A stretch of DNA of 40,209 nucleotides from Kayfunavirus T147P5. A program made the translations under genes and the position numbers. The stretch lies in the sequence record OZ035809.1; one strand, written 5' to 3'. Below, one piece after another: positions 2,937 to 30,276 of this stretch. Position 1 is the stretch's first letter; each line of letters starts with the position of its first letter. Below the pieces are notes generated by a model. The model saw only the letters and a list, made by a program, of their open reading frames with translations, was not told the origin of the DNA and searched no databases.

Positions 2937-3030
2937 CTGAATGAATAACTATAGGCGAAAACTGAATTAATACGCGGTTAGTAACCTATAGTTACTACCA
3001 GTCTAACCTACTGTTTTACAAGGAGTTTGG

Positions 3031-3053
3031 ACTTAACTATCACTATAGGGAAG
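3031..3053 (+). promoter_or_regulatory. phage RNAP promoter (phiOR-like)
   Basis: ACTTAACTATCACTATAGGGAAG; matches the 11-copy consensus; +1 G about 3048; between gene 19 and gene 19.5 as in T7. Confidence 0.8.
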
Positions 3054-3232
3054 ACCCCCGGTTACTTATAGTATTACTGTAGTGAATATACATATGCAGA
3101 CTTTATGCAAGACCTTAGGAGGCAGACTCCGAGTTCTTACCTAAGGCTTGCACCGATGGAAGGAGGGTGATATTAATCATAATCCCTCCAATACAGATAG
3201 TAAAGACCATAGATACAGGAGGTATGTAGCAT

Positions 3233-3391
3233 ATGGCAAAGACCAAAGCTGTACTTAAAGCTCTGGCGACCAATCGAGCTACATACAGGTTTCTTGCTGC
3301 TGTTCTACTTGCTGCTGGCGTTACTGCTGGAAGTCAGTGGGTCGGGTGGGTCGAGACTCTCGTATGTTCTCTGGTCTCTCAGTGTAATTAA
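3233..3391 (+). CDS. gp19.5-like small protein
   Basis: Not in ORF track (52 aa); RBS AGGAGG 3216-3221; MAKTKAVLKALATNRATYRFLAAVLLAAG...LVCSLVSQCN resembles T7 gp19.5 (..RVTYRFLVVL...VVCSIL..); same position after gene 19. Confidence 0.6.
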   Translation: MAKTKAVLKALATNRATYRFLAAVLLAAGVTAGSQWVGWVETLVCSLVSQCN

Positions 3392-3460
3392 CGCAATCAT
3401 GGTAACGATTCATGAGCGGAAGACCTAAGGTCAGTACGTGGATAAAGACTCACTCTACTG

Positions 3461-3599
3461 ACCTTAGCTACTGTAGTCAAGGACTTTAGGTAACACCATT
3501 CAGGCTCTCACCTCTGGTCTACCTACTGATTGGTTCACTGGTCGTCATCCGATGGTCTTAGACCTACGGTCCTTGACCTACAGTAGCTGGTTCCTAAGG
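3461..3599. repeat. imperfect inverted repeat (about 24-bp arms, about 85-bp spacer) just left of the presumed terminal repeat
   Basis: Left arm ACCTTAGCTACTGTAGTCAAGGAC (3461-3484) vs right arm GTCCTTGACCTACAGTAGCTGGT (3569-3591), reverse-complementary with one indel and one mismatch. Confidence 0.5.
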
Positions 3600-3637
3600 A
3601 GGGACGATGAGTTTTGGACCAAAAGTTTGAGACCACA

Positions 3638-3826
3638 TCTCACAGTTCAAGAACCTCAAGTCTCCCCATAGGCCATCTTTCAGTCCAGACCAAAGGCCCT
3701 ACCCCAGTCTATCATAAGGTTAGACCGATGGTCAAGACTTCAGGTCAACGATAGGTTGTGGCTATGGCTTAGGGAAGGACGATAGGTAGGGACTATGGGT
3801 CTGTCTTTGAGTCTCTATCTGTATCA
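3638..3826. repeat. probable direct terminal repeat (single collapsed copy) containing the physical genome ends
   Basis: Begins TCTCACAGTTCAAGAACCTCAAGTCTCCCCATAGG, closely resembling the first bases of the T7 genome (recalled); 246 bp downstream of gene 19.5; end near CTATCTGTATCAG is approximate. Confidence 0.45.
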
Positions 3827-3910
3827 GACCATAAGTCACTAACCTACAGTCTCACTAACCTACAGTCTCAACCATAAGACACCAACACCTACAGTCATAG
3901 ACCTACAGTT
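3827..3910. repeat. short direct-repeat array (ACCTACAGT units)
   Basis: ACCTACAGT at 3842, 3858, 3887, 3901 with tandem 16-bp CTCACTAACCTACAGT x2; analogous to the CCTAAAG-type arrays after the T7 terminal repeat. Confidence 0.5.
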
Positions 3911-4020
3911 ACTAGACACAAAGCTATAGACTTAAGGTCTAAGACATGTTAGTCAAAGACTATATCCTCTTACACCATGGGGCCGACGATAGCTTAATCA
4001 ATATTATTTCAAATTACCTA

Positions 4021-4191: not shown

Positions 4192-4306
4192 GTACCACAT
4201 CGAAACAACGGTGACGACCGACACTGAAACGGTCTACCTGAAGTCCTCTGACTGAAGGGAATGCTCTTTAACAATCTGGATAAACTCTTAATGTGCGCCG
4301 ATAGCG

Positions 4307-4378
4307 ACTAACTACAGGGTCTTTGAGTCTACATCTGAAGGCCCTGGCTGATAGTCACTAACTTAACGGATGGACACT
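4307..4378 (+). promoter_or_regulatory. conserved early intergenic element E1 (probable RNA processing/regulatory site)
   Basis: GACTAACTACAGGG...GGCCCTGGCTGATAGTCACTAAC; diverged copy of E2/E3; immediately precedes first early ORF. Confidence 0.4.
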
Positions 4379-4624: not shown

Positions 4625-4627
4625 GAG

Positions 4628-4697
4628 TGATTAACTACAGGTCGTTAGAATCATAGCGGCCTGACTGATAGTCACTAGCAACCTAAGAGGATTCATT
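4628..4697 (+). promoter_or_regulatory. conserved early intergenic element E2
   Basis: TGATTAACTACAGGTCGTTAGAATCATAGCGGCCTGACTGATAGTCACTAGC; about 90 percent identical to E3; fills the intergenic gap; RBS AAGAGGA follows. Confidence 0.4.
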
Positions 4698-4976
4698 ATG
4701 AGACTGAACAAAGCTACAGCAGAAGCCTTCCGCAAGGAGCTTGAATCAAGATTATTGTGTGGAGTGGCGGAAGGAGCCGCTCGATATAAAGAGAATGGTC
4801 TAACGTTCAAGCGCTTTATGTGGGATTGCTATCACGGAGTGGGCCATAAAAAGTCGCAGGAAATAATCACCAGCAACAATGCGGAAGTGCAAGTGATAGG
4901 AGGATACATGGCTAACGTGAAGGATTCACACATAGAGACAATGCTTAAGAATGCACTTAAAGATGTAGCCTACTAG
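4698..4976 (+). CDS. hypothetical early protein
   Basis: 92-aa ORF with RBS AAGAGGA; no recognisable motif. Confidence 0.65.
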   Translation: MRLNKATAEAFRKELESRLLCGVAEGAARYKENGLTFKRFMWDCYHGVGHKKSQEIITSNNAEVQVIGGYMANVKDSHIETMLKNALKDVAY

Positions 4977-5046
4977 TGATTAACTACAGGTCGTTAGACT
5001 GATAGCGGCCTGACTGATAGTCACTAACAACTGAGAGGATATAACT
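4977..5046 (+). promoter_or_regulatory. conserved early intergenic element E3
   Basis: TGATTAACTACAGGTCGTTAGACTGATAGCGGCCTGACTGATAGTCACTAACAAC; contains short hairpin TGACT-GAT-AGTCA; precedes ocr-like gene. Confidence 0.4.
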
Positions 5047-5705: not shown

Positions 5706-5818
5706 CGTGTATCATAGCCTGACCATAACGCTGACAGGCGGGTACTGAGTGATAGACGAGAGGTCATCGACTGATAGGTGGCCTCAAAGATTACCACTTG
5801 AATTAATAGGAGTTAACT

Positions 5819-6525: not shown

Positions 6526-9207
6526 ATGAGCGTCATCTCTATTGACAAACACGACTTCTCTGATGTGTCGAACGCCATTGAGCCGTTTAACCTGCTGGCT
6601 GACCACTACGGGCAAGACCTTGCAGTCAAACAGCTTCAGCTTGAGCATGAGGCATACACTGAAGGCGAGCGACGTTTCATCAAGAACCTTGAGCGGCAGA
6701 CTGAGCGAGGGGAACTGGCAGACAATCAGGTCGCCAAGCCTTTGATGCAGACTCTGGTTCCTAAGATTGCGCAAGCCGTCAAGGAGTGGCATGAAGGTCC
6801 AGACGGGAAGCTGTCAACCTCTCGTCCGAGCGTAGCGTTCACCATGTTAAGCACTGAAGAGAAGGCCGTCAAGGACCGCTCTCTTCGCATCTCCTGCGAG
6901 TCTGCTGCGGTTATCATACTGAAGGTCATCCTCTCCAAGCTGGTCAAGCCTGAAGGTATACCGATTACACCGATGGCCTCCGCGATAGGTCGCACACTTG
7001 AGGATGAAATCCGATTCGGTCGCATTCGTGACAAGGAGAAGGAGCACTTCAAGAAGGCAATAGCTGATAACCTGAACAAGAGAGCCGGGGCATCATACAA
7101 GAAAGCCTACATGCAAGCGGTCGAGACATCCATGCTGGAGCAAGGCCAACTAGAAGATGCGTGGGGAACTTGGAGTCCGACCGAGGCTGTCCACGTTGGA
7201 ATCAAGATGCTGGAGATTGTCATCCAGTCAACACAACTGGTCGAGCTTAAGCGTTATGGTGCTGGCAATGCAGCGGCTGACGTTGAGATGGTCCACCTGT
7301 CAGACTTCTGGGTCAAGAAGATGGCACAACGCGGCTTCAGCCTTGCGGGCATCGCTCCAGTCTACCAACCTTGCGTAGTTCCACCTAAGCCGTGGACTGG
7401 TGTCGTAGGCGGTGGGTACTGGGCCAAAGGTCGCAGACCATTACCACTGATTCGCTTAGGGTCTAAGTCTGCGGTGGCACGTTACGAAGACGTGTATATG
7501 CCTGAAGTCTATGACGCTGTTAACATCATCCAGAATACACCTTGGAAAGTGAACAAGAAGGTTCTGGACGTGGTGAACATGGTCGAGAAGTTGAACAACA
7601 CGCCTATTGATGACATCCCTCAGATGGAGCCACTGAAGCCTGAAGAATATGCGGGTGAGACTGAAGAGGAACTCAAGGCGTGGAAGAAAGCGGCTGCTGG
7701 TATCTATCGCCGCGAGAAGGCCAGACAGTCACGCAGGTTGTCGCTGAGCTTTATCGTTAACCAAGCGAACAAGTTCTCTCAGTTCAAGGCCATCTGGTTC
7801 CCGTATAACATGGACTGGCGCGGTCGCGTCTACGCTGTGCCGATGTTCAACCCTCAGGGTAACGACATGCAAAAGGGTCTCCTGACTCTGGCAGTCGGTA
7901 AGCCTATTGGTGCTGATGGTTTCAAATGGCTGAAGGTCCACGGTGCAAACTGTGCGGGTGTCGATAAAGTCACCTTCGAGGAGCGCATCAAGTGGGTGGA
8001 AGATAACCACGACAACATCATGGCTACCGCTAAGGCACCGATGGACAGCATTGAGTGGTGGGGTAAGTTAGACTCTCCGTTCTGCTTCCTAGCGTTCTGC
8101 TTCGAGTATGCTGGCGTAATGCACCACGGTTTGTCTTACTCCTGCTCGCTGCCGATAGCTTTCGATGGGTCCTGCTCTGGGATTCAGCACTTCAGCGCGA
8201 TGCTTCGTGATCACATCGGTGGACATGCAGTAAACCTGACGCCTTCCGGTAAGGTCCAAGACATCTACCGCATCGTGTCTGACCGCATTGAGGAGGAGCT
8301 TAAAGTCCTGCTGGTTAATGGCACGGACAACGAGGGGGTCACTAACGAGGATAAGAAAACTGGCGAGATTACCGAACGTATCAAGCTGGGGACACGAGAG
8401 CTGGCCCGCCAGTGGCTGACTTACGGTATGTCACGCAAGGTTACTAAGCGCTCAGTCATGACTCTGGCCTATGGGTCGAAAGAGTACGGCTTTGCAGACC
8501 AAGTTTACGAGGACATCGTGATGCCAGCGATTGACTCAGGGTCTGGCGCTATGTTCACTGAACCAAGCCAAGCGTCTCGCTTCATGGCTAAGATGATTTG
8601 GGAAGCTGTGAGTGTGACCGTAGTTGCTGCAGTTGACGCGATGAAGTGGCTTCAAGGTGCTGCCAAGCTGCTGGCGGCTGAAGTGAAGGACAAGAAGACT
8701 GGAGAAATCCTGAAGCCTTGCCTTCCGGTACACTGGGTCACACCTGATGGGTTCCCGGTCTGGCAGGAATACCGCAAGAAGGATACCACTCGTCTGAACC
8801 TGATGTTCTTAGGGTCATTCAACCTTCAGCCTACCGTCAACAAAGGCACGAAGAAGGAGTTGGATAAGCACAAGCAGGAGTCAGGAATTAGCCCGAACTT
8901 CGTCCACTCACAAGATGGTAGCCATCTCCGCAAGACTGTAGTCCACACTCACCGCAAGTATGGCGTGATGTCATTCGCAGTGATTCACGATAGCTTCGGG
9001 ACCATCCCGGCTGACGCTGAGTATCTGTTCCGGGGTGTCCGTGAGACGATGGTCGAGACCTACCGCGACAACGATGTGCTGCTTGACTTCTACGAGCAGT
9101 TTGAATACCAACTTCATGAGAGCCAGCGCGACAAGTTGCCTGAGCTTCCGAAGAAAGGTAAACTGAATATTGAGGACATTCTATCTTCAGACTTTGCATT
9201 CGCTTAA
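6526..9207 (+). CDS. DNA-directed RNA polymerase, single-subunit (T7 gp1-like)
   Basis: 893 aa; collinear with T7 RNAP (DFSD...PFN.LADHYG, FQPCVVPPKPWTG, WFPYNMDWRGRVYAV, FCFLAFCFEYAG, HDSFGT, C-terminal FAFA). Confidence 0.97.
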   Translation: MSVISIDKHDFSDVSNAIEPFNLLADHYGQDLAVKQLQLEHEAYTEGERRFIKNLERQTERGELADNQVAKPLMQTLVPKIAQAVKEWHEGPDGKLSTSRPSVAFTMLSTEEKAVKDRSLRISCESAAVIILKVILSKLVKPEGIPITPMASAIGRTLEDEIRFGRIRDKEKEHFKKAIADNLNKRAGASYKKAYMQAVETSMLEQGQLEDAWGTWSPTEAVHVGIKMLEIVIQSTQLVELKRYGAGNAAADVEMVHLSDFWVKKMAQRGFSLAGIAPVYQPCVVPPKPWTGVVGGGYWAKGRRPLPLIRLGSKSAVARYEDVYMPEVYDAVNIIQNTPWKVNKKVLDVVNMVEKLNNTPIDDIPQMEPLKPEEYAGETEEELKAWKKAAAGIYRREKARQSRRLSLSFIVNQANKFSQFKAIWFPYNMDWRGRVYAVPMFNPQGNDMQKGLLTLAVGKPIGADGFKWLKVHGANCAGVDKVTFEERIKWVEDNHDNIMATAKAPMDSIEWWGKLDSPFCFLAFCFEYAGVMHHGLSYSCSLPIAFDGSCSGIQHFSAMLRDHIGGHAVNLTPSGKVQDIYRIVSDRIEEELKVLLVNGTDNEGVTNEDKKTGEITERIKLGTRELARQWLTYGMSRKVTKRSVMTLAYGSKEYGFADQVYEDIVMPAIDSGSGAMFTEPSQASRFMAKMIWEAVSVTVVAAVDAMKWLQGAAKLLAAEVKDKKTGEILKPCLPVHWVTPDGFPVWQEYRKKDTTRLNLMFLGSFNLQPTVNKGTKKELDKHKQESGISPNFVHSQDGSHLRKTVVHTHRKYGVMSFAVIHDSFGTIPADAEYLFRGVRETMVETYRDNDVLLDFYEQFEYQLHESQRDKLPELPKKGKLNIEDILSSDFAFA

Positions 9208-9500: not shown

Positions 9501-9523
9501 CTAAACTATCACTATAGGATTAG
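9501..9523 (+). promoter_or_regulatory. phage RNAP promoter (phi1.1-like)
   Basis: CTAAACTATCACTATAGGATTAG; +1 about 9518. Confidence 0.8.
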
Positions 9524-9565
9524 ACTAAAGGTCATGACTCAAAGTCGTGGCCTTCATGATTAACC
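9519..9565 (+). promoter_or_regulatory. RNase III-site-like hairpin (analogous position to T7 R1.1)
   Basis: Same inner stem AAGGUCA(9528-9534)/UGGCCUU(9548-9554) as the elements at 296 and 16436. Confidence 0.45.
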
Positions 9566-9595
9566 CTAAATAAACACTACTGGAGATTTAACCGT

Positions 9596-14450: not shown

Positions 14451-14468
14451 ACTATCACCTTAGGGATG
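14446..14468 (+). promoter_or_regulatory. phage RNAP promoter (degenerate variant)
   Basis: CCTAAACTATCACCTTAGGGATG; two substitutions in the -4 to -2 region; upstream of primase-helicase. Confidence 0.5.
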
Positions 14469-14515
14469 GGACCGTGAGTCCTGTCCCTCTGTTCGCATTT
14501 GTGATTAAGGAGTGA

Positions 14516-16234: not shown

Positions 16235-16435
16235 GTGCGATTGGAAGTCACCATACGGAGGACACCATTAGTGTTTAAGAAACTTAAAGCTCGCTACCAT
16301 CGGTTCATGTACAAATGGTGGAGTGACGAAGCAACCTGCCTGTCCAACATTCTGGGAGACCAAAGGTTCAACTCTGCGGCATGGAAGAAAGCTAACCGGA
16401 AGTTCATGTATCACTTCTTGCGTACAGACTTCTAG
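16235..16435 (+). CDS. hypothetical small protein
   Basis: ORF-track GTG start at 16235; a better-supported start is GTG 16271 (RBS GGAGGA 16255-16260, 10-nt spacer); basic, Trp-rich. Confidence 0.4.
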   Translation: MRLEVTIRRTPLVFKKLKARYHRFMYKWWSDEATCLSNILGDQRFNSAAWKKANRKFMYHFLRTDF

Positions 16436-16481
16436 GTCTAGACTCAAGGTCATTCACATCGAGTGGCCTTTATGATTAGAC
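16436..16481 (+). promoter_or_regulatory. RNase III-site-like hairpin (analogous to T7 R4.7 region)
   Basis: Inner stem AAGGUCA(16446-16452)/UGGCCUU(16464-16470) identical to the copy at 296; outer stem GUCUA/UAGAC differs but stays complementary. Confidence 0.5.
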
Positions 16482-16498
16482 TAAACGGAGGATTAACC

Positions 16499-16900: not shown

Positions 16901-19059
16901 GTAACGTATATGGGTCTGATATCGAGACCAACGGTCTCCTTGACACCGTGTCCCAGTTCCATTGTGGGGTCCTGATTAATGCCGAGTCGAATGAGACCCT
17001 TAAGTATGGGGTAGCGCCGATGGTCGGTATCGTCGGTGGCTTCAAAGAGTATGTACAGAAGGTGGAAGAAATTGCTGCAACGCCTACGGGTATGCTTGTC
17101 TTCCATAACGGTATCAACTATGACGTCCCGGCTATTGACAAGCTGAAGCGTTTGTACTTTGGGAAACGATTTAACTTCCCGAAACACAAGATGATTGATA
17201 CCTTGGTGCTGGGCCGCTTGATGTATCCAAACATTAAGTTCTCAGACATGGGCGCAGTGAAAGCTGGTCGTCTGCCCCCTCAGATGATGGGACGACAGTC
17301 TCTTGAGGCTTGGGGCTATCGTCTCGGTGAGATGAAAGGTGAGTACAAACACGATTACGTTGCCAAGTGCAAGGCTGAAGGTATCGAATATAAGGCTGGG
17401 GACGAATGGTTGTTCCCGTCTCAGGAGATGCTGGACTATAACGTTCAAGACGTTGTGGTCACACTGGCGTTGTTCAAGAAGTTCCTGACTGACAAGTATT
17501 ACTTCCAGTCTGAACAGTTCGCTTTCGACCAGATTTATGCGTTGCGTCTGGAACATGATGCTGCGTGGACCTGTGCGAAGATGGAACGTAACGGCTATCC
17601 GATGAACACCGAGATGGTCGAAGGCTTATATCGTGAACTCACCGTCAAACGTGCAGAGCTGCTGGACAAGCTGCGTTCGACTTTCGGTAGCTGGTATGCA
17701 CCGAAGGGAGGCAAGGAGTTCTTCAAGCACCCACGTACAGGCAAGGACCTTCCTAAGTATCCGCGAGTCGTGTATCCTAAGGTCGGTGGCATCTTTAAGA
17801 AGCCGAAGAACAAAGCTCAACGATTAGGTCTTGAGCCTTGCGAGTTCGACTCACGAGACACGATGGAAGGAGCACCATTCACGCCAATAACTTACGTTGA
17901 GTTTAATCCGGGAAGCGGAGACCACTTAGCGAAAGTTCTGATGGAGCGTGGTTGGGAGCCTGTGGACTTCACTGACACCGGGAAACCTGTAGTTGATGAC
18001 GAGACGTTGGAACACGTTAAGTTACCAGACGCAGAGGCTCAGGCTTGCGTAGAGCTGGTCCGTGAGTATCTGGTGGTCCAGAAGCGCATCGGTCAGGCTG
18101 CTGAAGGTAAGAACGCATGGTTGAAACTTGTAGGTCCAGACGGACGTATGCACGGTTCAATCAACCCATGTGGTGCAGTAACCGGACGTGCGACCCATAG
18201 TTCACCAAACATGGCTCAGGTACCGGCTAACGGTGCTCCGTATGGTGAGACTTGCCGTGGTGCTTTTGGTGCAGCGTGGAACAAGAAGGACGGTAAACCA
18301 GACCCTTGGATTCAAGTAGGTGTGGATGCTTCGGGTCTTGAGCTTCGTTGTCTGGGGAATCGAGCGGCTCCGTTTGATGGTGGAGACTATGCGAAGACTG
18401 TGGTCGAAGGTGACATCCACTGGGCCAACGCAGTCAACGCTGGGTTAGCACCTACCGTTCCACGCGATAAGTCGAACCACGACCACGATGCTTTCCGTAA
18501 TAACGCCAAGACGTTCATCTATGCGTTCCTGTATGGTGCAGGGGCCGCGAAGATTGGACTTATAGTTGGAGGTGGTAAGAAGGAAGGTGCGGCCCTGATG
18601 AAGAAATTCATTGAGGGCACACCAGCTATCAAGGACCTGCGAGAGGCTGTGCAGAACACGCTCATCTCAGAGTCGAAGTGGGTAGATGGTGAGAACATCG
18701 TGAAGTGGAAACGTCGCTGGCTGAAAGGTCTGGATGGTCGCCGCATTCACATCCGGTCGCCACACTCAGCACTTAACGCTCTACTTCAGGGTGATGGTGC
18801 GGTTGTCTGTAAGCACTGGATGGTACTGACTGAGAAGAAACTTGAAGAGGCTGGTTACGGTAACGGATGGGACGGTGACTTTGCGCTAATGGCTTGGATT
18901 CACGATGAATTGCAGATAGCGTGCCGTACTCAGGAGATAGCAGAAGATGTCGTCCGTATTGCTCAAGAGGCGATGCGCGAGGTCGGACGCTTCTATAACT
19001 TCAAGTGTGAACTTGATACGGAGGGTAAGATTGGACCAACGTGGAAAGAGTGTCATTGA
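16891..19059 (+). CDS. DNA polymerase (T7 gp5-like, family A)
   Basis: 722 aa; exo motif SDIETNGLL; pol motifs GKPWIQ.G.DASGLELR, RDNAKTFIYAFLYGAG, HDELQ; collinear with T7 gp5. Confidence 0.95.
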   Translation: MDLSNVYGSDIETNGLLDTVSQFHCGVLINAESNETLKYGVAPMVGIVGGFKEYVQKVEEIAATPTGMLVFHNGINYDVPAIDKLKRLYFGKRFNFPKHKMIDTLVLGRLMYPNIKFSDMGAVKAGRLPPQMMGRQSLEAWGYRLGEMKGEYKHDYVAKCKAEGIEYKAGDEWLFPSQEMLDYNVQDVVVTLALFKKFLTDKYYFQSEQFAFDQIYALRLEHDAAWTCAKMERNGYPMNTEMVEGLYRELTVKRAELLDKLRSTFGSWYAPKGGKEFFKHPRTGKDLPKYPRVVYPKVGGIFKKPKNKAQRLGLEPCEFDSRDTMEGAPFTPITYVEFNPGSGDHLAKVLMERGWEPVDFTDTGKPVVDDETLEHVKLPDAEAQACVELVREYLVVQKRIGQAAEGKNAWLKLVGPDGRMHGSINPCGAVTGRATHSSPNMAQVPANGAPYGETCRGAFGAAWNKKDGKPDPWIQVGVDASGLELRCLGNRAAPFDGGDYAKTVVEGDIHWANAVNAGLAPTVPRDKSNHDHDAFRNNAKTFIYAFLYGAGAAKIGLIVGGGKKEGAALMKKFIEGTPAIKDLREAVQNTLISESKWVDGENIVKWKRRWLKGLDGRRIHIRSPHSALNALLQGDGAVVCKHWMVLTEKKLEEAGYGNGWDGDFALMAWIHDELQIACRTQEIAEDVVRIAQEAMREVGRFYNFKCELDTEGKIGPTWKECH

Positions 19060-20725: not shown

Positions 20726-20799
20726 TATACTGGGCCGGACTTCTGGCCCTTTACTGCATGTACAAGTGGTTCGGGTCGAACAACCGCCCCAAACACTGA
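20707..20799 (+). CDS. small membrane protein (gene 6.3 position)
   Basis: Not in ORF track (30 aa); MDTIHVIYWAGLLALYCMYKWFGSNNRPKH; overlaps the gp6 3' end in another frame. Confidence 0.3.
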   Translation: MDTIHVIYWAGLLALYCMYKWFGSNNRPKH

Positions 20800-20851
20800 G
20801 TCTAACAGATAGTCATATCCTATCAATCCAATAGTCATCCATAGGTGAAAC

Positions 20852-20874
20852 ACTAAACTATCACTATAGGGACT
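20852..20874 (+). promoter_or_regulatory. phage RNAP promoter (phi6.5-like)
   Basis: CTAAACTATCACTATAGGGACTT; +1 about 20869. Confidence 0.8.
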
Positions 20875-20935
20875 TTAGGACCTAAGATATGACTATAAGA
20901 TAGACTTTAGTCTTAACTTAAAGAGGAGATTCAAG

Positions 20936-24056: not shown

Positions 24057-24074
24057 ACTATCACTATAGGAACA
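24052..24074 (+). promoter_or_regulatory. phage RNAP promoter (phi9-like)
   Basis: CCTAAACTATCACTATAGGAACA; overlaps portal stop. Confidence 0.8.
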
Positions 24075-24145
24075 ACGTCTGGTCTACAATTTGTAGGTTT
24101 CTAGTCCAGTTGTTCCTACCATTTCAATCAAAGGAGAATGACTCA

Positions 24146-25070: not shown

Positions 25071-25093
25071 ACTAAACTATCACTATAGGGAGA
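25071..25093 (+). promoter_or_regulatory. phage RNAP promoter (phi10-like, strongest consensus match)
   Basis: TAAACTATCACTATAGGGAGACC with GGGAGA initiating sequence; about 100-nt leader before capsid gene. Confidence 0.85.
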
Positions 25094-25195
25094 CCAAGAG
25101 ACAGACTCAAGGTTTCCCTATTACTTCAGTCCATACGGATTGGGCGTACAGTAAGTAATAAACTTTATCTTTCAATTGAATAGGAGAATTATCAT

Positions 25196-26245
25196 ATGGC
25201 AAACGTTCCGGGTCAGAAAGTTGGTACAGACCAAGGTAAGGGCAAATCTGGTTCCGACGCTCTGGCGTTGTTCCTGAAGGTCTTTGCTGGCGAAGTCCTG
25301 ACCGCATTCACTCGCCGCTCTGTAACTGCTGACAAGCATATTGTCCGTACCATTCAGAACGGTAAGTCTGCTCAGTTCCCGGTCATGGGTCGCACCTCTG
25401 GTGTGTATCTAGCTCCTGGTGAGCGACTGTCCGATAAGCGTAAAGGTATCAAACATACCGAGAAAGTGATTACCATTGATGGTCTGCTGACTGCCGATGT
25501 GATGATTTTCGACATTGAAGACGCGATGAACCACTATGACGTGGCTGGCGAGTACTCCAACCAGTTAGGTGAAGCTCTGGCTATCGCTGCCGATGGTGCG
25601 GTACTGGCTGAGATGGCCATTCTGTGTAACCTACCGGCTGCATCTGATGAAAACATCGCTGGTCTTGGCAAAGCGTCTGTGCTGGAAGTTGGTACTAAAA
25701 CCGACCTGAACACCCCTGCTAAACTGGGTGAAGCAATCATCGGTCAACTTACCATCGCTCGTGCGAAACTGACCTCCAACTACGTACCTGCTGGCGACCG
25801 TTACTTCTACACCACGCCTGACAACTACTCTGCGATTCTGGCTGCTTTGATGCCTAACGCTGCTAACTACGCTGCTCTGATTGACCCTGAGACGGGCAAC
25901 ATCCGTAACGTAATGGGCTTCGTTGTGGTTGAGGTTCCGCACCTGACTCAGGGTGGTGCTGGTGAGACTCGTGGTGACGATGGTATCACTATCGCTTCCG
26001 GTCAGAAGCACGCCTTCCCAGCTACTGCCACTGGTGATGTTAAAGTTGCTCTGGACAACGTTGTGGGTATGTTCTCTCACCGTTCTGCGGTGGGTACCGT
26101 TAAACTGCGTGACTTGGCGCTGGAACGTGACCGTGACGTCGATGCTCAGGGCGACCTGATTGTTGGTAAGTACGCTATGGGTCACGGTGGTCTGCGTCCT
26201 GAAGCAGCGGGCGCACTGGTTTTCACAGCAGCGTCAGCGGGTTAA
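25196..26245 (+). CDS. major capsid protein (T7 gp10A-like)
   Basis: 349 aa; GTDQGKG, LALFLKVF.GEVLTAF, DKRKGIKHTEKVITIDGLLTADV, NHYDV, ALMPNAANYAALIDPE, MGHGGLRPEAAGA nearly identical to T7 gp10A. Confidence 0.96.
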   Translation: MANVPGQKVGTDQGKGKSGSDALALFLKVFAGEVLTAFTRRSVTADKHIVRTIQNGKSAQFPVMGRTSGVYLAPGERLSDKRKGIKHTEKVITIDGLLTADVMIFDIEDAMNHYDVAGEYSNQLGEALAIAADGAVLAEMAILCNLPAASDENIAGLGKASVLEVGTKTDLNTPAKLGEAIIGQLTIARAKLTSNYVPAGDRYFYTTPDNYSAILAALMPNAANYAALIDPETGNIRNVMGFVVVEVPHLTQGGAGETRGDDGITIASGQKHAFPATATGDVKVALDNVVGMFSHRSAVGTVKLRDLALERDRDVDAQGDLIVGKYAMGHGGLRPEAAGALVFTAASAG

Positions 26246-26512: not shown

Positions 26513-26550
26513 AACCCCTTGGGTGCCTTCGGGTGCTTGAGGGGTTTTTT
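26513..26550 (+). terminator. T-phi-like intrinsic terminator after the capsid gene
   Basis: AACCCCTTGGGTGCCTTCGGGTGCTTGAGGGGTTTTTT: long GC-rich stem with UUCG loop and U-tract; very similar to T7 T-phi as recalled. Confidence 0.85.
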
Positions 26551-26568
26551 GCTTAAGGAGTAAAACCT

Positions 26569-27135: not shown

Positions 27136-27362
27136 TGGCTAGTCACAACCTGAAGATTCACCGCCAGCACTTTGGGCCGGTACAACTAGGTCTAAAGACA
27201 GCAGAGCTGAGACTTAACGACCGGGACTTTAAGGTTGGCGACTGGCTTATCCTGAATGAGTGGGACAACGGGTATACTGGACAGCAGGTAGCACGTAAGG
27301 TTGTCCACATTGCTGACGTTGGTAACATCGCTGAGGGATACGTCCTAATGAGTATGATTTAA
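27135..27362 (+). CDS. hypothetical small protein inserted between tail tubular genes (possible ASCH/PUA-like fold)
   Basis: 75-aa ORF, ATG overlaps gp11 stop; no T7 counterpart; the fold suggestion is from general appearance only. Confidence 0.5.
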   Translation: MASHNLKIHRQHFGPVQLGLKTAELRLNDRDFKVGDWLILNEWDNGYTGQQVARKVVHIADVGNIAEGYVLMSMI

Positions 27363-27371
27363 GGAGGGCAT

Positions 27372-29729
27372 ATGCCGCTTATTACGCAAAGCATAAAAAA
27401 TCTTAAGGGTGGCATTAGCCAACAGCCTGACATCCTGAGGTTCTCAGACCAAGGCGAGGCTCAAGTTAACTGCTGGTCATCCGAGAGTGATGGCCTCCAG
27501 AAGCGTCCACCTACAGTCTTCAAGCGACGTCTTAACATCGACGTTGGGAGTAACCCTAAGTTCCACCTGATTAACCGTGACGAGCATGAGCAGTATTACA
27601 TCGTGTTCAATGGGTCCAACATTCAGGTAGTTGACTTGAGTGGTAATCAATACTCAGTTTCAGGTGCGGTAGATTACGTTAAGTCGTCCAACCCGCGAGA
27701 TGACATCCGTGTCGTTACCGTTGCAGACTATACGTTCATCGTGAACCGTAAGGTCGTCGTTAAAGGTGGAAGCGAGAAGTCACACTCTGGTTATAATCGT
27801 AAAGCTCGTGCTTTAATCAACCTGCGTGGTGGACAGTATGGTCGCACCCTTAAGGTAGGAATCAACGGAGGCGTTAAGGTTTCGCATAAGCTGCCAGCAG
27901 GTAATGATGCCGAGAATGACCCACCTAAGGTGGATGCTCAGGCCATCGGTGCAGCTCTGAGAGACCTTCTTGTTGCTGCTTACCCTACCTTCACGTTCGA
28001 CCTTGGGTCTGGATTCCTGTTAATCACTGCCCCTTCAGGGACTGACATTAACTCAGTGGAGACGGAGGATGGCTACGCTAACCAGCTAATCAGCCCAGTC
28101 CTAGACACGGTGCAAACAATCTCTAAGTTGCCTCTTGCGGCTCCAAATGGGTACATCATTAAGATTCAAGGTGAGACCAACAGTAGCGCCGATGAATATT
28201 ACGTGATGTATGACTCCAATACTAAGACGTGGAAGGAGACAGTAGAGCCGGGAGTGGTCACTGGGTTCGATAGCACCACAATGCCACATGCTCTGGTGAG
28301 ACAATCTGACGGATCCTTTGAGTTCAAGACTCTGGACTGGTCTAAGCGAGGTGCTGGTAATGATGACACAAACCCTATGCCTAGCTTCGTGGATGCTACG
28401 ATTAACGATGTGTTCTTCTACAGGAACAGGCTAGGGTTCTTGTCAGGAGAGAACGTAATCATGAGCCGTTCAGCCAGCTACTTTGCGTTCTTCCCTAAGA
28501 GTGCTGCGACACTGAGTGATGATGATCCTATTGACGTAGCTGTAAGTCACCCTCGAATCTCAATCCTTAAGTATGCCGTTCCGTTTAGCGAGCAGCTACT
28601 ACTTTGGTCGGATGAGGTTCAGTTCGTGATGACAAGCTCTGGGGTACTTACCTCGAAGTCTATCCAGCTTGATGTAGGCTCAGAGTTTGCCTTAGGCGAT
28701 AATGCCAGACCGTTCGCTGTAGGACGCTCAGTCTTCTTCTCAGCGCCTCGTGGGTCATTCACCAGTATTAAGCGATACTTCGCTGTAGCAGATGTGTCTG
28801 ACGTGAAGGATGCTGATGATACCACTGGCCACGTGCTGTCCTATATCCCTAACGGGGTGTTTGACATTCAAGGTACAGGGACTGAGAACTACATCTGCGT
28901 CAACTCTACAGGTGCATACAACCGAATCTACATCTACAAGTTCTTGTTTAAGGACGGCGTACAGCTCCAAGCATCTTGGTCGCACTGGGAGTTCCCTAAA
29001 GCTGATAAGATTCTGGCGTCTGCGTCGATTGGCTCAACCATGTTCATTGTTCGACAGCATCAAGGCGGCGTGGACCTTGAGCATCTTAAGTTCATCAAGG
29101 AGGCAACTGACTTACCATTAGAGCCGTATAGACTCCACGTTGACTCCAAGGTGTCTATGGTAATACCAATTGGCTCATACAACGCTGACACCTATAAGAC
29201 TACGGTTGACATTGGTTCTGCTTATGGTGGAAACGCACCGTCTCCCGGTCGGTACTATCTTATTGATAGTCAGGGTGCCTACGTGGACATTGGTGAATTG
29301 ACCGACATCTCAACTGTGGCTATACTCAATGGCGATTGGTCAGGACGTACAGTGTTCATCGGGCGGCCTTATCTGATGTCCTACAAGTTCTCACGGTTCC
29401 TGATTAAGATTGAAGACGAGAGTGGCACTCAGTCTGAAGACACTGGTCGTCTACAGCTTCGTCGGGCTTGGGTCAACTACAAAGACACTGGCGCTCTGAG
29501 ACTCATTGTCAGAAACGGTGAGCTGGAGTTCGTGAATACCTTCAACGGGTACACCATTGGTCAGCAAACCATCGGGACTACCAACATTGGGGATGGACAG
29601 TATCGCTTCGCTATGAATGGTAACGCATTAACCACGAGTCTAACCTTAGAGTCAGATTATCCTACCCCAGTGTCCATCGTTGGCTGTGGCTGGGAGGCGT
29701 CATACGCTAAGAAAGCTCGTTCCGTCTAA
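27372..29729 (+). CDS. tail tubular protein B (T7 gp12-like)
   Basis: 785-aa ORF; RBS AAGGAGG; size and position as T7 gp12. Confidence 0.9.
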   Translation: MPLITQSIKNLKGGISQQPDILRFSDQGEAQVNCWSSESDGLQKRPPTVFKRRLNIDVGSNPKFHLINRDEHEQYYIVFNGSNIQVVDLSGNQYSVSGAVDYVKSSNPRDDIRVVTVADYTFIVNRKVVVKGGSEKSHSGYNRKARALINLRGGQYGRTLKVGINGGVKVSHKLPAGNDAENDPPKVDAQAIGAALRDLLVAAYPTFTFDLGSGFLLITAPSGTDINSVETEDGYANQLISPVLDTVQTISKLPLAAPNGYIIKIQGETNSSADEYYVMYDSNTKTWKETVEPGVVTGFDSTTMPHALVRQSDGSFEFKTLDWSKRGAGNDDTNPMPSFVDATINDVFFYRNRLGFLSGENVIMSRSASYFAFFPKSAATLSDDDPIDVAVSHPRISILKYAVPFSEQLLLWSDEVQFVMTSSGVLTSKSIQLDVGSEFALGDNARPFAVGRSVFFSAPRGSFTSIKRYFAVADVSDVKDADDTTGHVLSYIPNGVFDIQGTGTENYICVNSTGAYNRIYIYKFLFKDGVQLQASWSHWEFPKADKILASASIGSTMFIVRQHQGGVDLEHLKFIKEATDLPLEPYRLHVDSKVSMVIPIGSYNADTYKTTVDIGSAYGGNAPSPGRYYLIDSQGAYVDIGELTDISTVAILNGDWSGRTVFIGRPYLMSYKFSRFLIKIEDESGTQSEDTGRLQLRRAWVNYKDTGALRLIVRNGELEFVNTFNGYTIGQQTIGTTNIGDGQYRFAMNGNALTTSLTLESDYPTPVSIVGCGWEASYAKKARSV

Positions 29730-29736
29730 CTTATTG

Positions 29737-29786
29737 AAGGGCCTATAGATTTACCTTAACTATCACTATAGGGACTATAGGCCCTT
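29737..29786 (+). promoter_or_regulatory. 12-bp perfect inverted repeat (RNA hairpin, R13-like) enclosing the phi13 promoter
   Basis: AAGGGCCTATAG (29737-29748) and CTATAGGCCCTT (29775-29786) are exact reverse complements; the promoter lies in the loop. Confidence 0.5.
29754..29776 (+). promoter_or_regulatory. phage RNAP promoter (phi13-like)
   Basis: CCTTAACTATCACTATAGGGACT; +1 about 29771. Confidence 0.8.
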
Positions 29787-29805
29787 AAGGTTATAAGGAG
29801 ACTTT

Positions 29806-30276
29806 ATGTATATTCGCAAGGCTACGGAACCAGATGTCCACTACTTTCTGTGGCATCTTTCAGCAGATGATGTTAATGAATGCAAAGCAAACTACGGGTC
29901 AACCGTGGGTCTCTCTGAGAGACTGCTTAAGCACCTATCTCCATCATCTGTGGTTTTAACGAACGGTGTAGGTGAAGTGTTTGCCTATGGTGGAAACCAA
30001 GGGGATAACGTATGGTTCTTGACTTCTGGTCTGGTCTACAAGCTGGGGACTAAAGAGAAGCGAGAGTTCATAAAGTGTATCTCTGAGTACAGGGACTTAA
30101 TGTTAGACCAATACGGGACCATCTGGAACTACGTGTGGTCAGGCAATAAGTCTCACATTAAATTCTTGAAGTTGCTTGGCGCTAAATTCCATGATGATTG
30201 GACTGTAAGCCCGGTAACTGGTGAGAGTTTTCAACTATTCACTATCTCTAAGGAGGACGTATGTGCGAGCCAGTAA
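29806..30276 (+). CDS. internal virion protein A (T7 gp13-like, by position)
   Basis: 156-aa ORF with RBS AAGGAG between gp12 and gp14 homologs. Confidence 0.65.
   Translation: MYIRKATEPDVHYFLWHLSADDVNECKANYGSTVGLSERLLKHLSPSSVVLTNGVGEVFAYGGNQGDNVWFLTSGLVYKLGTKEKREFIKCISEYRDLMLDQYGTIWNYVWSGNKSHIKFLKLLGAKFHDDWTVSPVTGESFQLFTISKEDVCASQ

Follow-up and report, generated by a model that had tools for sequence, protein, structure and literature searches.

The 76-nt spacer between genes 12 and 13 of Kayfunavirus T147P5 contains an exact 12-bp inverted repeat that encloses the phage promoter phi13, and we consider it probable, by analogy with T7 and T3, that this element corresponds, in Kayfunavirus, to the R13 processing hairpin found around phi13 in the T7 group and is cut by RNase III in read-through RNA. 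The window analysed here, the whole 40,209-nt stretch of sequence record OZ035809.1, is a complete K1F-like T7-group genome (Autographiviridae, Studiervirinae) whose start is rotated, the terminase gene lying at 1206-2936 and that of the RNA polymerase at 6526-9207; all of its long open reading frames are on the + strand. The 1 kb surrounding the repeat matches 219 phage records, which are Kayfunavirus, the best at 95-98% identity. From the open reading frame list and the annotations of near-identical phages, gene 12 (27372-29729, + strand) encodes the 785-aa tail tubular protein B and gene 13 (29806-30276, + strand) an internal virion protein, and the spacer that separates them houses both the repeat and the promoter in a layout identical to that of T7 and T3. 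The Shine-Dalgarno sequence AAGGAG (29795-29800, + strand) and the ATG (29806-29808, + strand) of gene 13 lie outside the hairpin. An Rfam scan of the whole window at gathering thresholds returned zero matches. Elsewhere in the window, a non-coding 1-kb region at 2937-3945 probably corresponds to the genome ends and holds a promoter (+1 at 3048) as well as a long inverted repeat (~3455-3590).

A preceding sequence-only reading had described two exact 12-bp reverse complements flanking the promoter. The arms AAGGGCCTATAG (29737-29748) and CTATAGGCCCTT (29775-29786) are complementary at 12 of 12 positions with 26 nt between them, as that reading held. The window has nine matches to the phage promoter consensus where zero are expected, every one of them on the + strand, and TTAACTATCACTATAGGGA (29756-29774) is among them. 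Alignment with the T7 and T3 promoters assigns the phi13 start to G29771, which bears out the earlier estimate of about 29771, and places the promoter (-17 to +6) at 29754-29776 on the + strand; ASO2B, T7 and T3 have an annotated promoter at the homologous position. Relative to this start, the 5′ arm occupies -34 to -23 and the 3′ arm +5 to +16. Because the 5′ arm lies upstream of +1, both arms occur together in read-through RNA only, and phi13 RNA carries the 3′ arm alone, so that the distinction drawn earlier between the two transcripts holds.

In the minimum free energy fold of the + strand RNA, the 5′ arm AAGGGCCUAUAG (29737-29748) pairs with the 3′ arm CUAUAGGCCCUU (29775-29786) to give a 12-bp upper stem capped by a 26-nt loop, in which promoter positions -17 to +4 are accompanied by a weak 5-bp inner helix. 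Beneath the upper stem, an asymmetric internal loop (UAUUG at 29732-29736 on the 5′ side, AA on the 3′ side) leads to a 5-bp lower stem formed by UAACU (29727-29731) and GGUUA (29789-29793), and the gene 12 stop codon TAA (29727-29729) is inside this lower stem. By analogy with the T7 sequence CCUUUAU^GAUUA, the 3′ side of the internal loop would also be the cleavage zone for RNase III, predicted as CCCUU-AA^GG at 29787-29790 on the + strand. An alternative extension of the base vies with the lower stem for G29789, and the promoter core has at most a 7-bp alternative pairing available. RNA spanning 29720-29800 folds with -27.4 kcal/mol (z = -3.66), and one of 200 shuffled sequences folds equally well.

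The window holds two perfect 12-bp inverted repeats with loops no longer than 60 nt; 200 dinucleotide shuffles averaged 0.14 such repeats, and 8% of the shuffles contained at least one. The only other such repeat, at 3425-3436/3456-3467, falls in the 2937-3945 region. Taken by itself, the repeat around phi13 is only moderately unlikely to have arisen by chance; a chance origin is implausible because the repeat sits around a promoter in a 76-nt spacer, where hairpins are documented in T7 and T3. Its 3′ arm was apparently made through duplication of the promoter core. Two 9-nt direct repeats, ACTATAGGG (29765-29773) and ACTATAGGC (29774-29782), stand in tandem at 29765-29782 on the + strand, and the second copy provides most of the arm. 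With a 3′ arm that is a separate segment at +5 to +16, the whole promoter therefore falls in the loop, as in R6.5 of T7 and T3, and phi13 transcripts carry the complete 3′ arm.

Although the sequence-only reading implied that this arrangement is new, it is the known R13/phi13 of T7 and T3, which that reading had not recognised. In the T3 RefSeq record, a stem_loop at 25443-25480 labelled 'RNase III recognition site R13', an annotation that may be a prediction, wholly encloses 'T3 promoter phi13' (25457-25479), and R6.5 (17135-17206) is placed around phi6.5 (17160-17182) in the same way. The gene 12-13 spacer of T7 folds into a 15-bp hairpin in which UUCUCCCUGUGGUGG pairs with positions -8 to +7 of phi13 itself. 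The RNase III site R13 of T7 reportedly goes back to Dunn and Studier in 1983. Ten T7 cleavage coordinates, reportedly given by Dunn and Studier in 1983, all map to structurally equivalent positions, which supports them: at canonical sites the cut falls within CCUUUAU^G, 3′ of the internal loop's centre strand on its 3′ side, and at R13 it falls at the hairpin's 3′ base. RNase III features, R13 included, are not displayed in the T7 records inspected, the K1F record has no regulatory features annotated at the gene 12-13 junction, and the R13-type hairpin is unannotated in the Kayfunavirus records inspected, of which ASO2B carries the promoter only.

Folding of the junction in 12 representative T7-group lineages placed the 5′ arm of the longest helix within -42 to -19, with a 3′ arm overlapping the promoter, in nine of them: T7, T3, MmP1, Aeromonas KFSA9, Przondovirus KP32, Pektosvirus, Unyawovirus, a Pseudomonas phage and the Kayfunavirus-like L020. 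The arm sequences vary by lineage, tracking the promoter of each phage, and the z-scores of the junction folds range from -0.5 to -6.4. A 3′ arm wholly downstream of +1 (+5 to +16) was seen in the lineage of the window only, among these 12. Two further features of such spacers came to light. Just past phi13, T7 (L001/L060) has a degenerate partial promoter copy, AATACGACT-AC-GGGAGG, at 27284-27300, which includes the gene 13 Shine-Dalgarno sequence, could offer the same 5′ arm an alternative 3′ partner and parallels the duplicated core of the candidate. A homopolymer of 13-15 G lies between phi13 and gene 13 in T3 (L028, ~375-390) and in Dickeya phage W2B (L031, ~345-358).

By this analogy, late read-through RNA from upstream promoters would carry both arms and fold into the 12-bp stem, holding the promoter in its 26-nt loop. 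Host RNase III would then make a single 3′-side cut at the foot of the upper stem, near 29787-29790, such that the gene 12 mRNA would end in a protective 3′ hairpin and the RNA from gene 13 onward would begin with a 5′-monophosphate just upstream of its ribosome-binding site. RNA initiated at phi13 (+1 at 29771) would start inside the loop without the 5′ arm, form no hairpin, escape processing and retain a 5′-triphosphate. We infer hairpin formation in vivo, cleavage by RNase III together with its position, and a stabilising effect on the message. The scheme predicts two classes of gene 13-17 messages with 5′ ends 16-19 nt apart; a literature search found no mapping of Kayfunavirus transcript ends. 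We rejected the idea that the hairpin masks the gene 13 ribosome-binding site: the predicted probability that the Shine-Dalgarno sequence is unpaired is 0.55 in read-through, 0.66 in phi13-initiated and 0.60 in cleaved RNA, and with accessibility so similar in all three leaders, the structure does not serve to mask translation. If the 9-nt duplication of the promoter core re-registered R13 in Kayfunavirus, one consequence is that the start of the phi13 transcript, GGGACUAUAGGCC, is the complement of the 5′ arm in read-through RNA, and there is a slim chance that abortive or early phi13 RNA pairs with that arm, blocking the hairpin and RNase III processing in trans when phi13 is very active. 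Antitermination by abortive transcripts has been reported at Tphi of T7 (PMC2952870), and blocking in trans, if true, would link phi13 activity to the processing of upstream messages.

The predicted structure is of a size and shape that RNase III could use. For the E. coli enzyme, the shortest significantly reactive helix measures 11 bp from cleavage site to loop (PMC1540722); internal loops confine its cleavage to one strand, and 3′ hairpins shield upstream RNA from exonucleases (PMC1540722; PMC3867540). The 12-bp stem exceeds this 11-bp minimum and has an internal loop below it in the predicted fold, and as modelled the two features fit the rules for E. coli RNase III.

We compared the element with canonical RNase III sites through a covariance model built from 16 T3 and T7 sites, without the window sequence. 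On the + strand, the model matched 293-345, 4303-4362, 4626-4677, 4975-5028, 5748-5801, 9516-9570 and 16434-16486 at 28-55 bits. Some of these seven sites sit at the positions of T3 R18.5, R1.1 and R4.7, three tandem sites in the early region have ACAGGUC..GGCCUGACUGAUAGUCAC in common, and all seven are unannotated in the Kayfunavirus records inspected. The candidate itself was not reported by the model at E<=10, and a local search gave no meaningful alignment. From T7 and T3, the same model recovers both R6.5 sites (~54 bits) but not the documented R13 and R3.8. Because the model does not detect it, we place the candidate outside the canonical family, non-canonical in the way that R13 is. Canonical sites (R0.3, R0.5, R1.1, R4.7, R18.5) resemble its predicted fold in having two stems with an internal loop and AAGG/CCUU followed by G(A/G)UUA. 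The AAGG/CCUU/GGUUA likeness is real, but the pattern was designed with the candidate already in view. The loops of canonical sites measure 3-6 nt against 26 nt here, and the stem interiors are unrelated.

These observations bear on whether a hairpin, once formed, is cut at all. An uncut hairpin might serve as a passive barrier to 3′ exonucleases, as an insulator that separates the messages of genes 12 and 13, or as a place where RNase III binds without cutting. The fold is stable, the canonical-site model gives no match, and G-C pairs near the predicted cleavage site may belong to the catalytic antideterminants described in PMC1540722; moreover, 10.1101/106799 describes the RNase III site R13 of T7 as weak. 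We nevertheless think it unlikely that the hairpin stays uncut, given its positional homology with named RNase III sites of T7 and T3 and a stem base, AAGG/CCUU plus GGUUA, that is common to canonical sites. A barrier, in addition, requires endonucleolytic entry downstream, and none is evident.

Conservation of the junction was followed within the genus. IMG/VR, metagenomes and GenBank together supplied 44 junctions that reduced to 23 types, of which 22 were aligned and one (L020, with a T7-type register) was set apart; the metagenome scan contributed only 15 loci, mostly of junction types already known. The 9-bp core GGCCUAUAG/CUAUAGGCC is invariant across the 22 types except for apical mismatches in L056 and L058, and the 3′ arm is invariant in 21 of them. 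Variation is found in the loop upstream of the promoter, in the promoter specificity region (three types) and at the end of gene 12. The Kayfunavirus relatives L016, L021 and L024 (at ~1440-1470 of each locus) combine arms identical to those of the window with another specificity region, ACACCCTCACTATAGGGA or TTTAACACTCACTATAGGGA, which implies RNA polymerases of differing specificity within the genus. The third pair from the base is mismatched in 14 of the 22 types, the continuous stem then often being 9 bp, and the perfect 12 bp are confined to a subgroup of Kayfunavirus junction types. Considered as a helix of 15 positions, the structure has 13-15 of them paired in every one of the 22 types, with a single mismatch at either of two places.

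Substitutions within the stems of the 22 types are few. The upper stem has one A-U to G.U change (L002), and 97% of cells in the lower stem are paired, with U-A/U.G variation at one pair that gives G.U in seven types. Compensatory covariation amounted to zero pairs changed on both sides among the 22 types under two alternative structures, and shuffles gave the observed value. In 20 of the 22 types, RNA of the + strand folds more stably than that of the - strand, with a mean difference of 2.35 kcal/mol. This strand bias and the tolerance of G.U pairs fit a structure that acts as + strand RNA. Within the genus, support consists of conservation and wobble tolerance, without covariation, and could reflect constraints at the sequence level. 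The anatomy of the sequence, its conservation and its homology in position and design to the T7-group elements are established.

In a further alternative, the repeat has no function in RNA. It would then be a by-product of the 9-nt duplication of the promoter core, which contains the palindrome CTATAG, and its arms would be conserved for promoter context, for the initially transcribed sequence, for the gene 13 leader, or through recent ancestry or recombination. The tandem copies agree with such an origin, as do the zero covariation and the position of the 3′ arm within the transcribed leader; the L057 junction is near-identical even though its gp13 is only 66% identical, which could be a mosaic exchange. 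The duplication, however, accounts only for CTATAGG and not for the additional GCCCTT/AAGGGC match. The 5′ arm lies outside a T7-type promoter yet is conserved as well as the promoter, hairpins recur at the junction with unrelated sequences in most T7-group lineages, and the + strand fold is favoured via G.U pairs. On balance, we regard a mere by-product as improbable and retain the reading of the element as a probable RNase III processing hairpin, drawn from its T7 and T3 counterparts.

The sequence-only reading had called the hairpin 'processing or terminator-like', and its first half gains from the position and design shared with R13 and R6.5 of T7 and T3. That the hairpin makes the phage RNA polymerase pause or terminate, and so limits read-through into gene 13 and guards phi13 from occlusion, is very unlikely in spite of the stable stem with its G+C-rich centre: the loop is 26 nt long, no U-run follows the stem (tail UUAAGGUUAUAAGG), a terminator scan calls nothing at the element, and T7 and T3 list no terminator at the gene 12-13 junction. 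A genuine late terminator of the Tphi type lies after the capsid gene at about 26516-26556, where a tight hairpin is followed by UUUUUU.

Other promoters of the window are also associated with hairpins. At 20795-20915, a second promoter (20854-20872, +1 at 20869) is nested in a long hairpin of -33.4 kcal/mol, at the position of R6.5/phi6.5 in T7 and T3; the hairpin is undetected by the canonical-site model, and the transcribed start of this promoter, GGGACTTTAGGACCTAAG, resembles that of phi13, GGGACTATAGGCCCTTAAG. At the late and middle promoters at 14463-14490, 24069-24118 and 25088-25122, hairpins start at or near +1 and do not enclose the promoter, forming 5′-terminal stem-loops comparable to T7 R3.8 and the phi10 leader.

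Annotation of K1F-like phages, several of which are under development for therapy and engineering, would gain a probable R13 enclosing phi13; the same reasoning suggests an R6.5 that encloses the promoter at 20854. Moving phi13 together with its flanks, whether in genome refactoring or as a part, would bring the putative processing signal along. The element opens no new question: the arrangement is already documented in T7 and T3, and what differs here is the register, with the 3′ arm at +5 to +16. The principle of a nested hairpin has reportedly been known for T7 since 1983.

In design, the closest likeness is to R6.5 of T7 and T3. These sites have a lower stem, an asymmetric internal loop and an upper stem of about 10-12 bp of the form AAGG...CCUU, with an entire phage promoter in the apical loop and the 3′ arm downstream of +1. 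T7 R6.5 reads AAGGUCCCUA-[phi6.5]-UAGGGGCCUU-UAC^GAUUA, T3 R6.5 is of the same kind, and the candidate reads AAGGGCCUAUAG-[phi13]-CUAUAGGCCCUU-AA-GGUUA, so that the pattern AAGG..[promoter]..CCUU-UAY-GAUUA of the two R6.5 sites stands against AAGG..[promoter]..CCUU-AA-GGUUA here. In contrast to the candidate, R6.5 is located before gene 6.5, has an internal loop of 2 nt/3 nt rather than 5 nt/2 nt, and scores ~54 bits with the canonical-site model, which gives the candidate no score.

In position, the counterpart is R13 of T7 and T3, which shares with the candidate the gene 12-13 spacer and a 5′ arm placed between the gene 12 stop, which it closely follows, and the promoter. In all three phages, the hairpin is confined to read-through RNA because the 5′ arm precedes the promoter, and in T3 the promoter likewise lies within the annotated stem-loop. 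The 3′ arm of T7 and T3 R13, however, is the promoter/initiation region itself (-8 to +7), whereas that of the candidate is a separate segment at +5 to +16; use of this region (about -8 to +8) as the 3′ arm, as found in T7, T3, MmP1, KP32 and KFSA9, does not extend to the candidate. R13 of T7 and T3 also lacks the AAGG/CCUU stem base and the lower stem, both of which are present in the predicted fold of the candidate. Overall, the sequence comparison indicates that the Kayfunavirus element is a register variant of the T7-group R13/phi13 hairpin.
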